Assembly: GCF_003334785.1 (NCBI RefSeq)
Contig: NZ_QOWV01000025.1
Source of the DNA: Escherichia coli
GTDB lineage: Bacteria; Pseudomonadota; Gammaproteobacteria; Enterobacterales; Enterobacteriaceae
Strand: one strand, 5' to 3'
DNA: 41,323 nucleotides
Below the pieces are notes generated by a model. It searched no databases, was not told where the DNA came from, and worked only from the letters and a program-made list of their open reading frames with translations. Both the position numbers and the translations under genes were made by a program. Positions 24,591 through 40,936 of the stretch are shown one piece after another. The first letter of the stretch is position 1. The number at the start of each line of letters is the position of its first letter.

Positions 24591-25010
24591 TTATCTCTCA
24601 AGTTCGTTCAGTGCATTTTTGACACGCTCTCTTAAACCGGCTTTCTCTTCGCTTTCTTCCACAGTATTTTCTTCGTCTTCAGAAGAAGAGGGGGCATTCT
24701 CAACCGCGACGCCTGGGTCATCTTCCTCCTCGACGGATTCGACGACGGGGAGTGGCTGTTTTTTGAAGAAATAGTGTTGTGTTGATTGTTTAAAAGCGGG
24801 CGTTTCAGCCTCTACAGTGACTTCGGCTTTTACTATCCAAAGCACCCATAGCTGCCTGGCATACCCACCAACCAGCACCATTCCTGCAAACCACAGGCAA
24901 ATCAGTAATAAACAAATTACATATATTATGGTGCTGTGTTTTTGTCGGGAGAAGATACCAGGGTGACCTGTTTCTTTCTGCTCACGCGCGGCGATATAGA
25001 ATTCAAACAT
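24591..25010 (-). CDS. gspB: Type II secretion accessory protein GspB, 139 aa
   Basis: One predicted TM segment (IIYVICLLLICLWFAGMVLVGGY) and acidic Glu/Asp-rich C-terminal region; immediately downstream of gspA. Confidence 0.8.
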   Translation of the reverse strand: MFEFYIAAREQKETGHPGIFSRQKHSTIIYVICLLLICLWFAGMVLVGGYARQLWVLWIVKAEVTVEAETPAFKQSTQHYFFKKQPLPVVESVEEEDDPGVAVENAPSSSEDEENTVEESEEKAGLRERVKNALNELER

Positions 25011-25011
25011 G

Positions 25012-38235: not shown

Positions 38236-38242
38236 AACACAT

Positions 38243-40936
38243 TTATTGCTTAGTAAACGGCGCGAAGATTTCGCTAAATGCGTACTTCGGTGCCTGTTCT
38301 TTAGTCAGGCCGTGGAATTCCGGAGACAGGTTAGTGCCGCCCGGCAGGTCGCGCGCGATTGACCAGATACCAACCATACCGAGATTACGCTTCTGCGCAT
38401 CCTGCATGACCAGACGAGCATCAGAGAGATAGAACACCTCGCCCTGAACGTCGTTCACGCCAACCATCGGCGTGGTACCCATCATAGCGTCAATTTCTGC
38501 ATCGCTCTTATTGGGATGGAGGCCTTTCAATTGTGAATGCAGGTTGGCAATCGCAGACGTTGCACACTTACCGTGAATGTTCTGGCCTTCGGTATTTGCA
38601 GACTGACAAATCGCGTTACCGTAGTCCATTGTCATCACGTTCACACCCGCCAGCTCAACACCTTTCGCTTTGGCATCGCTCAGGACATTCATCCCTTCCG
38701 GCGTCAGGCCAGTCGGCAGAATTGGCAAGGTGTACCAGATAGCAATATCTTTGCCTTCTGACTTCCATTTATCCTGCACTTTCTTCACAGCAAGGTTACG
38801 ACGTTCAATAGATGCCTGATCCGCAACCCAGGTGCCTTCGATATCGAAGTCCAGGACTTTGAGGTTCAGGTTATCAACGATGTCATAATAATGCTGCATC
38901 AGATCGTCTACGTTCTTACAGGAAGCAGCCAGCGGAGCGTTGTTAGCACCACCGATAGACAGCATCACATCGCCGCCAGCCTCACGCAGAGCTTTGATTT
39001 TGCTGTACTGAGCGTAATTCTGCATACCGTAAGCGGTACCCCATGTCGGCAGACAGGTGTTCGCATCTTTACTCACCACAAACGCCAGCGTGAAGTGGTT
39101 GACGTTATGATTCTTAGCCAGCGCAGCCAGATCCGGGATCGTATTCAGCGTAAAGTCGACATACGGTGCATAAACGTGTTTCGGCCACGCTTTCTTCGGC
39201 GTACCTACGCGCTCTTTGGTTCCGGTCCAGTCAACAAAAACACGCCACGGGTTGCTGTCAGAAGGAGAAACTTTCTGCACTTTACTCTGAGAAATGTAGT
39301 TCACACCGTTAAAGCGAATCAGCGTATCGCTGGCATAAAGCGTTTCTGGATTAAACTGCGGCGCATTATTCAGCTCTTCGTTGCTATAGCTCTGAGCCTT
39401 ACCTAACGGCTTCCACGGGCGGCTATTGCTACCGGTGGCGTTTTGGTTCGCCACCAGAGCAGGGTTGTCACTTTGCGTCCAGAACAGCGCTTCATAAGCC
39501 TGCCCATCAACAACAACGCGATCACCTTTCACGTACACAGTGGATGCGGACCATGCTTTCGCCGGTTCGTATTTCTTCCACGGGTTATCGCCGCCCGGGA
39601 CAAAGCCCCATGCGTCTTGATCGACAGAAGTTTTATAATGTGCATCGTTATAATCTACGATGCTGTCCGCGCTGTACGCTTTGCTGGCCTGGAAACCATC
39701 CGCAACAATGACGCCGCCGTTATCAATTTCACAGGTAGTCGGGTTACCGTACTGACTCAATTCCGCAGCGGTAGCTGTACGCTCGAGACGCCATGGGTTA
39801 TTGGAGTTTTCAGCGCTGGTACCCCGTGGGCAATCTTTAGACCCAACCCACCAGGCGTTCTTGTAAACATTACCATTGAAAATAACATGGTAAATTTCGC
39901 TACCTTCCTGGCCGCTCCACGCTTGCAATGAGTAATCGTTAACGCTATCCGCTGGTGTTGATGGCTCGCTGTTATCCGGAGTTGGGGTCACCGGTGTTTC
40001 CGGAGTTGGATCAACCGGAGTCACAGCACCGCCATTATTATCCGGCTTAACGGAACAGGAGCCAGGGTTACCATACTGGCTGATTTCTGTTGCCGTTGCC
40101 GCGCGAACATAACGCCATGGGTTACTGGCATCGTTTTCTTTCGCATCGCCTGGGCAATTTGCCGCGCCTACCCACCAGGCGTTCTTATAAATGCCGCCGT
40201 TATAGATAACGTACCATGTAGAAGAACCTTCCTGACCTTTCCAGGCTACTACAGCATAGTTGTCGTTTGACTTATCAGCTGGGGCTGGCTGAACATCAGG
40301 AGCCGGTTTAACGTCCGGTGCCGGTTTCACATCCGGTGAAGGCTGTGGTGCTGAAGTACAGGACTGTGGATTACTGGTTTCTGAGATTTCCGTTGCCGTA
40401 GCGGCACGAACATAACGCCATGGGTTGCTGGCATCATTGCTTTTCGCATCACCCGGACAGTTAGAAGAGGCTACCCACCAGGCATTTTTATATACCGCAC
40501 CATTAAAGACGACATACCAGGTCTGACCGCCCTGCTGTTTATTCCAGGCAACTACAGAAGAATTAGACGGAACAGTGCCCTGTGCTGGTGTAGCCGAACC
40601 GCCATTAGCCGGCGTATTGGATGCAGGCGTATTTGAATTTGAAGAAGATGAGCTGCCGCTCTTTTCGCAGGAAAGTGTATTGCCAAACTGACTAATTTCA
40701 GCAGCTGTTGCGGTACGCTTTAAACGCCACGGGTTAGTTGCATCATTTGCTTTCGCTTTTCCCGGGCAATTTGTAGAAGAAACCCACCAGGCATTTTCAT
40801 AAATTTTGCCATCGAAAATAACCTGATATTTATTACCACCTTGTTGGTTATTCCATGCTTCCATTGCCAATGCTGGCAGAGCGGAACACACCAGCCCCAT
40901 ACCAATCATAGATTTAGTAAATATATTTAATTTCAT
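38243..40936 (-). CDS. chiA: Secreted multi-domain chitinase (endochitinase ChiA): signal peptide, four tandem chitin-binding modules, C-terminal GH18 catalytic domain; 897 aa
   Basis: Signal peptide ending ALA; four roughly 68-aa repeats each with AW..Q.G....Y.NAWWV...CPG...NPWR; GH18 catalytic motif LDFDIEGTW in the C-terminal domain. Confidence 0.93.
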   Translation of the reverse strand: MKLNIFTKSMIGMGLVCSALPALAMEAWNNQQGGNKYQVIFDGKIYENAWWVSSTNCPGKAKANDATNPWRLKRTATAAEISQFGNTLSCEKSGSSSSSNSNTPASNTPANGGSATPAQGTVPSNSSVVAWNKQQGGQTWYVVFNGAVYKNAWWVASSNCPGDAKSNDASNPWRYVRAATATEISETSNPQSCTSAPQPSPDVKPAPDVKPAPDVQPAPADKSNDNYAVVAWKGQEGSSTWYVIYNGGIYKNAWWVGAANCPGDAKENDASNPWRYVRAATATEISQYGNPGSCSVKPDNNGGAVTPVDPTPETPVTPTPDNSEPSTPADSVNDYSLQAWSGQEGSEIYHVIFNGNVYKNAWWVGSKDCPRGTSAENSNNPWRLERTATAAELSQYGNPTTCEIDNGGVIVADGFQASKAYSADSIVDYNDAHYKTSVDQDAWGFVPGGDNPWKKYEPAKAWSASTVYVKGDRVVVDGQAYEALFWTQSDNPALVANQNATGSNSRPWKPLGKAQSYSNEELNNAPQFNPETLYASDTLIRFNGVNYISQSKVQKVSPSDSNPWRVFVDWTGTKERVGTPKKAWPKHVYAPYVDFTLNTIPDLAALAKNHNVNHFTLAFVVSKDANTCLPTWGTAYGMQNYAQYSKIKALREAGGDVMLSIGGANNAPLAASCKNVDDLMQHYYDIVDNLNLKVLDFDIEGTWVADQASIERRNLAVKKVQDKWKSEGKDIAIWYTLPILPTGLTPEGMNVLSDAKAKGVELAGVNVMTMDYGNAICQSANTEGQNIHGKCATSAIANLHSQLKGLHPNKSDAEIDAMMGTTPMVGVNDVQGEVFYLSDARLVMQDAQKRNLGMVGIWSIARDLPGGTNLSPEFHGLTKEQAPKYAFSEIFAPFTKQ
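39725..40864 (-). repeat. Four tandem chitin-binding-module coding repeats within chiA, separated by low-complexity Ser/Pro/Thr linkers
   Basis: Protein-level repeats at about aa 25-93, 128-196, 229-296 and 337-404, mapped back to nucleotide coordinates. Confidence 0.85.
40284..40340 (-). repeat. About three tandem copies of an 18-nt unit encoding a P-A/S-P-D-V-K/Q linker in chiA
   Basis: Plus strand GCCGGTTTAACGTCCGGT (40302-40319) and GCCGGTTTCACATCCGGT (40320-40337), preceded by a degenerate copy; encodes PSPDVKPAPDVKPAPDVQ. Confidence 0.8.

Follow-up and report, generated by a model that had tools for sequence, protein, structure and literature searches.

The T2SS-alpha and chitinase locus of Escherichia coli K-12 as part of a strain-variable cassette that probably replaced a native short segment between the S10 and str operons

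The closest described counterpart of the locus treated here is the type II secretion system alpha (T2SS-alpha) of Escherichia coli K-12 with its substrate, the chitinase ChiA, known from the work of Francetic and Pugsley (cited in PMC5797941, PMC2649431 and PMC10329019). The stretch of DNA that was analysed, 41,323 nucleotides in length and called the window below, belongs to the E. coli K-12 chromosome (it matches MG1655 3,428,918-3,470,240) and holds this very system between the S10 (rpsJ) and str (tufA) ribosomal operons, with the same gene set, the same order and the same 179-bp region that contains the SlyA site. An earlier note, made from the sequence alone, had recognised a known K-12 system with ChiA as its substrate and silencing by H-NS, and rightly so (PMC5797941, PMC2649431, PMC10329019); the system itself is textbook material. 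What can be added to the K-12 picture is an evolutionary refinement: the bacterioferritin genes bfr-bfd and the upstream half of the S10 promoter are part of the same strain-variable unit, which was most likely acquired together with them, and this unit has a deeply diverged short counterpart in other strains that appears to be the native allele. Taken jointly, the function of T2SS-alpha with ChiA and the import of a long cassette in place of the native short segment are considered probable, and the evolutionary claims alone, which are drawn from short alignments, from distance trees and from a collection of genomes that is biased, are held with much the same good, though not full, confidence.

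The functional side is outlined in the literature. ChiA, with its Sec signal peptide, would cross the inner membrane and then be pushed through the GspD-alpha secretin by a pseudopilus of GspG-K. The GspC/F/L/M platform would serve as the base on which this pseudopilus is built, with GspE supplying the power and GspO the maturation. The secretin, GspD-alpha, is of the Klebsiella type, and its passage through the peptidoglycan is thought to be helped by GspAB in the pilotin's stead (PMC10329019). Transcription would proceed from two strongly AT-rich regions, which H-NS keeps silent and which SlyA is able to open: gspC-O and chiA are repressed by H-NS, and SlyA binds the 179-bp gspA-gspC fragment and increases gspCDEF transcripts 2.4-fold (PMC5797941). 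In laboratory culture T2SS-alpha shows no expression (PMC2649431). Cells without H-NS secrete ChiA, according to work cited in PMC2649431 and PMC5797941, and ChiA and T2SS-alpha have been linked to adherence and to mastitis isolates (PMC11390585).

Other secretion systems can be compared gene by gene. The Pul system of Klebsiella, the Out system of Dickeya and the Exe system of Aeromonas have in common with the window the genes C-M and O, the Klebsiella-type secretin and GspAB (ExeAB-like). Unlike these, the window locus is without pilotin (PulS/OutS) and gspN genes, and its GspO is without the N-terminal Cys domain. The second T2SS of the species, T2SS-beta (yghJ-pppA-yghG-gspC-M), has the same architecture (PMC3032704, PMC10329019), but it lies at another locus, which the window does not include. 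Its secretin is of the Vibrio type, a pilotin is required, and the proteins secreted are SslE and LT.

With regard to location, contiguity of str and S10 is ancestral in Gammaproteobacteria and is interrupted in Salmonella by bfd, bfr and hopD without signs of mobility (Brandis, Cao and Hughes 2019, PMC6735719). This is the same gap in the ancient str-S10-spc-alpha supercluster; unlike the Salmonella interruption, the window has a full T2SS instead of hopD, plus chiA on the other side. H-NS-silenced xenogeneic islands (e.g. the Salmonella pathogenicity islands) likewise combine a patchy distribution, a phylogeny incongruent with the species tree, AT-rich promoters and counter-silencing by SlyA. 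Unlike such islands, however, the window cassette has a coding GC content equal to that of the host core and no integrase, tRNA or direct repeat, and it is located between essential operons and includes replaced housekeeping genes.

Two alleles between rpsJ and tufA

The segment between the two ribosomal operons exists in two forms in E. coli. The sample consisted of 5,426 complete E. coli genomes, and a genome was counted as long or short when it held at least 80% of that form. The long allele (at least 80% of 24400-41323) was found in 3,062 genomes, and matches to the long form among all 5,426 comprised 2,031 at 99% identity or more and 1,165 at 95-99%, the latter including the B2-type copy (97.3%). 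The short allele, present in 2,254 genomes, is a 1.5-kb segment with the order rpsJ, a 155-residue A24 peptidase, bfr, bfd and tuf. It was seen or cited in O157:H7 and O55:H7 (phylogroup E), in O111, O103 and O104:H4 (B1) and in strain 042 (D), and the long form in K-12, BL21 and NCTC86 (A) and in B2 strains; published accounts of B1 and uropathogenic E. coli strains are consistent with this distribution (PMC3032704, PMC2649431). The segment and the features at its two ends are as follows, in positions of the window:

24042-24353, minus strand: rpsJ, the left flank
24531-24558, minus strand: S10 operon promoter (-35 TTGCGT at 24558-24553; -10 TATAAT at 24536-24531)
24538-41175, no strand: whole exchangeable segment, 16,638 bp in the long allele; its counterpart in the short allele measures 1,532 bp
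41177-41204, minus strand: terminator hairpin of tufA (str operon), 12 pairs and a T-rich tail (terminator scan)
from 41228, minus strand: 3' end of tufA, the right flank

The flanking genes are thus those that the earlier note had named, and its unit of 24591-40936 turns out slightly too narrow as a description of what varies between strains. Up to 24537, and again from 41176, the flanks of the two forms share 99.9% identity, whereas bfr-bfd between them show only 77-78% DNA identity (blastn). Specifically, bfr of the long and short alleles is 79.5% identical in DNA and 88-90% in protein, and Bfd is 88% identical in protein. The indication is that bfr-bfd are part of the same exchanged unit as the genes on both sides, and not, as first supposed, bystanders between gsp and chiA.

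The peptidase of the short allele stands at the place of gspO, in the same orientation, and is 41% identical to the C-terminal two thirds of GspO. It belongs to the HopD family: the Salmonella protein annotated HopD has 66-68% identity to it, and members at 58-66% identity, with 155-160 residues and an A24 domain only, were found in Citrobacter, Lelliottia, Enterobacter and Raoultella.

The left junction (24537/24538; blastn breakpoint 24537) falls directly upstream of the -10 hexamer of the S10 promoter. From that hexamer to rpsJ the long, short and Salmonella alleles are near-identical in alignment, and the distance from -10 to ATG fits the S10 leader, which we take to be about 172 nt long. 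The sequence of the -35 hexamer is kept in both alleles and in Salmonella, while the 16-bp spacer and all sequence upstream differ. Natural E. coli strains consequently have two versions of the S10 promoter context in which -35, -10 and leader are conserved (24531-24558 of the window; L002 around 8139), and a possible effect of the spacer and upstream differences on ribosomal-protein expression is testable. In the long allele the gspB stop codon lies 33 bp upstream of the -35 hexamer, and the terminator scan gave no terminator-like hairpin between the two. At the right junction (41175/41176) homology between the alleles resumes directly past the tufA terminator hairpin. As for mobility, no integrase or tRNA is annotated or called in 24300-41323, and a repeat search gave no flanking direct repeats there.

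Origin of the long cassette

Relatives outside E. coli point to the short form as the native one. The Salmonella order rpsJ-hopD-bfr-bfd-tuf is collinear with the E. coli short allele, with 83.9% DNA identity over 1,685 bp, and Salmonella bfr-bfd are 78.5% identical to those of the window. Assemblies labelled E. albertii and E. marmotae have the short allele, 96-97% identical to the E. coli short form over 6.5 kb. A complete long allele, from gspA to chiA, is present in E. ruysiae (GspL 85% identical), and more distant long-allele relatives are the genome ERR3904647 (GspL 60%) and Superficieibacter (UBA5654 genome, GspL 53%).

The two pairs of bfr-bfd were compared in a neighbour-joining tree of 669 aligned nucleotides with 200 bootstraps, repeated with codon positions 1+2 and with amino acids. 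Long bfr+bfd of E. coli (K-12 and B2) group with E. ruysiae in 100% of bootstraps, and the long Escherichia form groups with ERR3904647 and Superficieibacter in 99% (all sites), 99% (positions 1+2) and 93% (amino acids). Both Escherichia alleles were united in none of the 200 bootstraps in any of the three data sets. Distances agree with this: the proportion of nonsynonymous differences (pN) in bfr+bfd is 0.021 between the short allele and Salmonella, 0.087 between short and long, 0.051 between long and ERR3904647 and 0.059 between long and Superficieibacter. Salmonella and Citrobacter are at much the same distance from the short allele (pN 0.02-0.035, about 84-85% DNA identity). Since synonymous divergence (pS) is 0.06 (A versus B2) and 0.21 (E. 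coli versus E. ruysiae) within the long allele and 0.03-0.13 within the short allele, both alleles are old residents of the genus Escherichia.

We infer the following course of events. The region 24538-41175, including bfr-bfd and the upstream half of the S10 promoter, would behave as one replaceable cassette. The native Escherichia state would be the short hopD-bfr-bfd segment, common to Salmonella and Citrobacter, and the long cassette would have entered Escherichia from another enterobacterial lineage, with ERR3904647 and Superficieibacter as its nearest sampled relatives; the bfr-bfd of the window most likely arrived with gsp and chiA. The simplest and most likely mechanism would be homologous recombination through the flanks, where the ribosomal and tuf sequences hardly vary. 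E. coli would since have kept both alleles, with the genes of the cassette under purifying selection. Conserved synteny in all relatives, which the earlier note had set against an acquired island, is not seen: the short hopD-bfr-bfd order is found in the 2,254 E. coli genomes, in Salmonella, in the E. albertii- and E. marmotae-labelled assemblies and in most sampled Enterobacteriaceae. Of the idea of an acquired island, the part that concerns synteny is borne out, and the bfr-bfd phylogeny supports it too, while the part that concerns coding composition is not.

Several points weigh against this account. (i) Coding composition does not mark the cassette as foreign (the values are given in the last section). 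(ii) No close donor is among the sampled genomes, as the nearest GspL outside Escherichia is only 60% identical. (iii) The grouping of the short allele with Salmonella and Citrobacter falls from 94% of bootstraps with all sites to 62% with positions 1+2 and 9% with amino acids, and the trees are distance-based and built on a short alignment, with synonymous sites saturated between groups (pS 0.6-0.8). (iv) As the long allele is also found in E. ruysiae, its acquisition could predate E. coli, and later transfers within the genus may have gone in either direction. (v) The shares of the long and short alleles (56% and 42%) are not population frequencies, the genome collection leaning to clinical lineages. 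(vi) The junctions are not crossover points, a notion that was considered and rejected: because similarity between Salmonella and the window ends at matching bases (24540 and 41178), they are the edges of ultra-conserved sequence, where homology becomes visible. (vii) A scan for the 10-bp H-NS motif TCGATAAATT with up to 2 mismatches gave 42 matches in the window against 41.75 expected, with no clustering in the control regions, and was dropped as evidence.

The best of the alternatives, though an unlikely one, is that the long cassette is native to Escherichia and that some E. coli lineages received the short segment from a relative. It would account for the long allele in E. coli of groups A and B2 (97.3% identical) and in E. 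ruysiae, where the pS values of 0.06 and 0.21 are typical for those splits. But the short allele stands at ordinary orthologue distances from Salmonella and Citrobacter and is not nested in any donor genus, it is also the form in the E. albertii- and E. marmotae-labelled genomes, and it is the long bfr-bfd that groups with Superficieibacter-type cassettes, outside Escherichia, Salmonella and Citrobacter.

Slightly less probable again is that the locus is a relic, silenced, in decay and now without function, whose place among ribosomal operons is a historical accident. The system is annotated 'cryptic' in MG1655 and, as mentioned, is silent in laboratory culture (PMC2649431); GspO has lost its Cys-rich N-terminal domain; and the annotation of one B2 strain, the cerebrospinal-fluid isolate N12, lists gspK as a pseudogene interrupted by a stop codon (L092:11111-12094), so that some long-allele strains may have an inactive system. 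In the window, however, all 17 reading frames of the locus are intact, each with a single, terminal stop codon. The ratio of nonsynonymous to synonymous divergence (dN/dS) is 0.02-0.37 for every gsp gene and chiA at two divergence depths (K-12 versus a B2 strain and K-12 versus E. ruysiae), which refutes a relic for the lineages compared, and the Bfr and Bfd proteins are identical across all three. The codon adaptation index (CAI) of chiA is 0.569, against 0.389 in ordinary genes, and the association of ChiA and T2SS-alpha with adherence and mastitis isolates (PMC11390585) also speaks against a relic. These values indicate that the genes of the cassette are maintained by purifying selection, and because of the low dN/dS and the codon adaptation of chiA they would be used in nature though silent in the laboratory.

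Least probable of all is the account, stated for strain W and phylogroup B1, that E. coli had the long form to begin with and that strains without it lost gspA-gspO (and chiA) by deletion. The exact place and orientation of the short-allele peptidase, and its alignment to the C-terminal two thirds of GspO, make an ancient deletion plausible for the origin of hopD. A recent deletion, however, cannot cause retained genes to diverge; the HopD family is conserved across genera; Salmonella, E. albertii and E. marmotae are collinear with the short allele; and the lack of chiA on the other side of bfr-bfd would call for two separate deletions. Deletion is thus already contradicted for any recent time scale. 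Because bfr-bfd are 77-78% identical in DNA and HopD and GspO 41%, the short allele appears not to be a deletion derivative of the long form, although so described (PMC3032704); that description misfits the sequence of strains without the system, which have the native Escherichia-Salmonella arrangement.

The replacement of a native short segment by a long cassette can be set against the wider Enterobacterales. The survey comprised the 80 best Bfr-anchored loci from species genomes, without Salmonella or E. coli-labelled genomes; one of its loci, L004, is E. coli-like and comes from a metagenome-assembled genome (MAG) labelled Citrobacter, and the Salmonella and other Escherichia loci were obtained by other routes. 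Among these 80 loci, tuf-bfd-bfr-rpsJ is the common order in Xenorhabdus, Photorhabdus, Proteus, Providencia, Serratia, Erwinia and Pantoea, and a hopD-type gene is added in many Enterobacteriaceae. Yokenella, Trabulsiella, Superficieibacter, Chimaeribacter and part of the Citrobacter and Enterobacter genomes have a full gsp cluster at this position. Some loci also place a chiA homologue between tuf and bfd, namely those of Trabulsiella, Superficieibacter, an Enterobacter MAG and Kosakonia oryziphila (on a contig of 6.2 kb, too short to show whether gsp is present). Chimaeribacter belongs to the family Yersiniaceae, and yet its bfr-bfd are nearer to the long forms of Enterobacteriaceae (pN 0.074-0.09) than to Serratia (0.152), and it grouped with Serratia and Rouxiella in 0% of bootstraps. 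It is independent evidence that bfr-bfd would move together with the secretion genes.

A broader reading is put forward tentatively, as one that falls a little short of being likely: the gap between str and S10 may be a cassette-exchange site, where whole segments are swapped among E. coli strains, among species of the genus and, as in Chimaeribacter, even across families, through homologous recombination in the translation operons, which hardly vary. Each segment would then consist of a secretion system or HopD alone, its own bfr-bfd, an optional chiA and the upstream half of the S10 promoter. If this were true, the Escherichia forms would be an old, species-spanning polymorphism, and the allele would set both the secretion capacity and the promoter context of the main ribosomal-protein operon.

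Replacement of the segment as a unit has consequences for other work. A pan-genome association study of mastitis lists bfr and bfd as accessory fitness genes with strain proportions exactly equal to those of gspA-O and chiA (PMC11390585, Tables 2 and 3). Most simply, the association of bfr and bfd with fitness is linkage within one cassette and not an effect of iron storage; pan-genome and association studies split bfr and bfd into 'accessory' genes as their alleles are only about 78% identical, and the equal strain proportions would most simply come from the two diverged alleles having been sorted into different gene clusters. The question of how non-mobile genes came to interrupt str-S10 (PMC6735719) is also given a concrete case here, namely replacement between conserved flanks without a mobile element.

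Two further observations concern E. ruysiae. Its gspA, its gspC and the control region between them have diverged from K-12 much further (74-80% DNA identity, synonymous divergence (dS) 0.83-0.90; 25012-27476 versus L089:7-2472) than the rest of the cassette (dS 0.19-0.65), which suggests a second, internal mosaic replacement around the divergent gsp promoters. In one E. ruysiae assembly (L089:16223-21164) tuf is located beside chiA and is followed by coaA, birA and murB, the neighbourhood of tufB; this is either a tufA/tufB inversion or an assembly join through the tuf repeat.

Genes of the secretion locus and the chitinase

All genes that the earlier note had listed (gspAB, gspC-O, bfr, bfd and chiA) are present and intact at the positions it gave. 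The pair gspB-gspA is divergent from gspC, after which gspD, E, F, G, H, I, J, K, L, M and gspO follow on the plus strand (to 37303), with bfr, bfd and chiA on the minus strand beyond:

24591-25010, minus strand: gspB, assembly factor acting with GspA (NCBIfam NF007250 equivalog, 287 bits, cut-off 180)
25012-26481, minus strand: gspA, ATPase-like peptidoglycan-binding assembly factor (Pfam AAA_22, GspA_C39-like, PG_binding_1)
26661-27476, plus strand: gspC (TIGR01713, 293.6 bits, cut-off 101.6)
27460-29412, plus strand: gspD, secretin, GspD-alpha of Klebsiella type (TIGR02517 equivalog, 649 bits, cut-off 351)
29422-30903, plus strand: gspE, cytoplasmic ATPase (TIGR02533, 656.8 bits, cut-off 630.25)
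30900-32096, plus strand: gspF, inner-membrane platform protein (TIGR02120, 548.7 bits, cut-off 424)
32106-34990, plus strand: the five pseudopilin genes gspG-gspK, namely
32106-32543, plus strand: gspG, major pseudopilin (equivalog model TIGR01710 passed)
32551-33060, plus strand: gspH, minor pseudopilin (equivalog model TIGR01708 passed)
33057-33434, plus strand: gspI, minor pseudopilin (equivalog model TIGR01707 passed)
33427-34014, plus strand: gspJ, minor pseudopilin (TIGR01711, 63.2 bits, just under the cut-off of 64.85)
34007-34990, plus strand: gspK, minor pseudopilin (equivalog model NF037980 passed)
35005-36168, plus strand: gspL (TIGR01709, 148 bits, cut-off 65)
36165-36626, plus strand: gspM (Pfam T2SSM, E = 5.8e-38)
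36626-37303, plus strand: gspO, prepilin peptidase (Pfam Peptidase_A24)
37332-37808, minus strand: bfr, bacterioferritin, long-cassette allele (TIGR00754, 279.7 bits, cut-off 125.55)
37880-38074, minus strand: bfd, bacterioferritin-associated ferredoxin, long-cassette allele (NF007803, 143 bits, cut-off 75)
38243-40936, minus strand: chiA, secreted endochitinase (Pfam GH18 and CBM_5_12, PDB chitinase matches)

Models for pseudopilins G, H, I and K were all above their cut-offs. GspJ passes the prepilin N-terminal domain model TIGR02532, and its E. ruysiae orthologue (88% identical) has a precomputed Pfam T2SSJ match. The MG1655 annotation calls the secretin GspDalpha. The claim of the earlier note that all core parts of a T2SS are present can be kept for C-M and O only in part, since GspO is without the N-terminal Cys-rich domain, and no gspN or pilotin gene is found among the annotated and called genes of the locus.

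In GspO, Pfam finds Peptidase_A24 alone (residues 82-190, E = 3.6e-30), and PF06750 is absent. In alignment with a 254-residue GspO relative, which has PF06750 (L091:11627-12391), the Escherichia protein is without 31 residues that hold the CxxC...CxxC motif, while the stretches around both catalytic aspartates are kept. The gap at the Cys motif and the absence of PF06750 are common to GspO of E. coli and E. ruysiae, and N-methylation of the pseudopilins may have been lost in Escherichia GspO. The HopD-type peptidase (L002:8333-8800, L088:5001-5468) likewise keeps both aspartate motifs, with an open frame conserved across many genera; two parts of GspO-type enzymes, the first transmembrane segment and the cytoplasmic domain, are missing from it. 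Certain HopD matches at 79-87% identity (P0010, P0013, P0020) were considered as other Escherichia species and rejected, as these are E. coli-like assemblies with ribosomal genes called in pieces, and their low HopD identity is probably sequencing error. P0003 (HopD 87%) was set aside likewise, being an E. coli short allele of the ordinary kind whose called start lies further upstream.

Against MG1655 the window shows a single difference in its last 20.2 kb, and against strain HT-947 four in all 41,323 bases. The MG1655 difference is at 36672, where the window has G and both MG1655 and HT-947 have A. This position is the middle base of gspO codon 16, and the codon encodes Gly in the window and likewise in E. 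ruysiae.

ChiA consists of a putative signal peptide, four N-terminal repeats of about 100 residues each, CBM5/12 modules and a GH18 catalytic domain, in this order. The N-terminus, MKLNIFTKSMIGMGLVCSALPALA, is by the look of the translation putatively the Sec signal peptide that a T2SS substrate needs. The GH18 domain was detected with Pfam PF00704 (residues 609-805, E = 1.3e-9), and the PDB chitinases 9buf (E = 2e-46) and 2dsk (E = 8e-38) match residues 584-895; CBM5/12 is represented by PF02839 at residues 461-494 (E = 1.5e-7) and by a weaker match at 415-443. The CAI of chiA (Nc, the effective number of codons, 43.9) is above that of rpoA and secY as well as that of ordinary core genes. 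Such codon adaptation is odd for a 'cryptic' gene and suggests strong chiA expression under some natural condition.

The ChiA repeats (family D1, 39758-40873, residues about 21-393) are 60-74% identical in DNA and are separated by Ser/Pro/Thr-rich linkers. They have no Pfam match; a CBM5/12-like pattern, W..Y..A.WW...NPWR, can be read in them by eye. Of the repeat region only residues 337-405 match a PDB chain (6ogd_C, Chitinase 2).

Composition and control regions

Base composition and codon usage were compared between groups of genes, with the 26 r-protein genes of the window as the reference set for CAI. The 14 gsp genes have a GC content of 0.497, a GC content at third codon positions (GC3) of 0.524, a CAI of 0.348 and an Nc of 55; the corresponding values for 15 ordinary core genes (window 1-10.6 kb) are 0.494, 0.467, 0.389 and 51. 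GC content is no different between the two groups (p = 0.59), CAI is slightly lower in gsp (p = 0.025), and GC3 is slightly higher. The lowest GC content (0.424) and CAI (0.246) of the locus are both those of gspC, the 5' end of which is AT-rich too. The check on foreign origin that the earlier note proposed, by composition and codon usage, therefore yields gsp values near those of core genes, and a chiA far above them in CAI (0.569).

The same note had called the gsp and chiA control regions AT-rich compared with the ribosomal genes, and here the figures agree with it: the ribosomal operon genes (26 r-protein genes, rpoA and secY) have a GC content of 0.512, against 0.229 for gspA-gspC, 0.299 for chiA-tufA and 0.327 for bfd-chiA, the three lowest values among the window's 14 intergenic regions with a length of 40 bp or more. 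Indeed, the 200-bp windows of lowest GC content in all 41 kb are at 26.4-26.5 kb and 40.9-41.0 kb. The coding genes are unlike an island by the compositional criterion because the unusual composition is confined to non-coding DNA. The control features are:

26482-26660, no strand: divergent gspA/gspC control region, 179 bp, GC 0.229
26555-26566: proposed SlyA site TTATATTAGTAA, in the gspA/gspC control region
38177-38236, minus strand: two terminator-like hairpins directly downstream of chiA, in the bfd-chiA spacer (consensus matches only)
40937-41176, minus strand: AT-rich chiA upstream region

Consensus scans for promoters and terminators gave counts at the level of shuffled sequence (19 vs 20.2; 21 vs 18.1), and the analysis drew on them for the tufA terminator and the chiA-downstream hairpins alone. 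An Rfam scan of the window found nothing in the gsp-chiA locus; its sole match at the gathering threshold is Alpha_RBS (13522-13633, 102.7 bits), upstream of rpsM. Some 150-190 bp upstream of the chiA start there is an AT-rich palindrome (41084-41129) with 20-nt arms, 90% complementary and separated by a 6-nt gap, which is a candidate site for a regulator.

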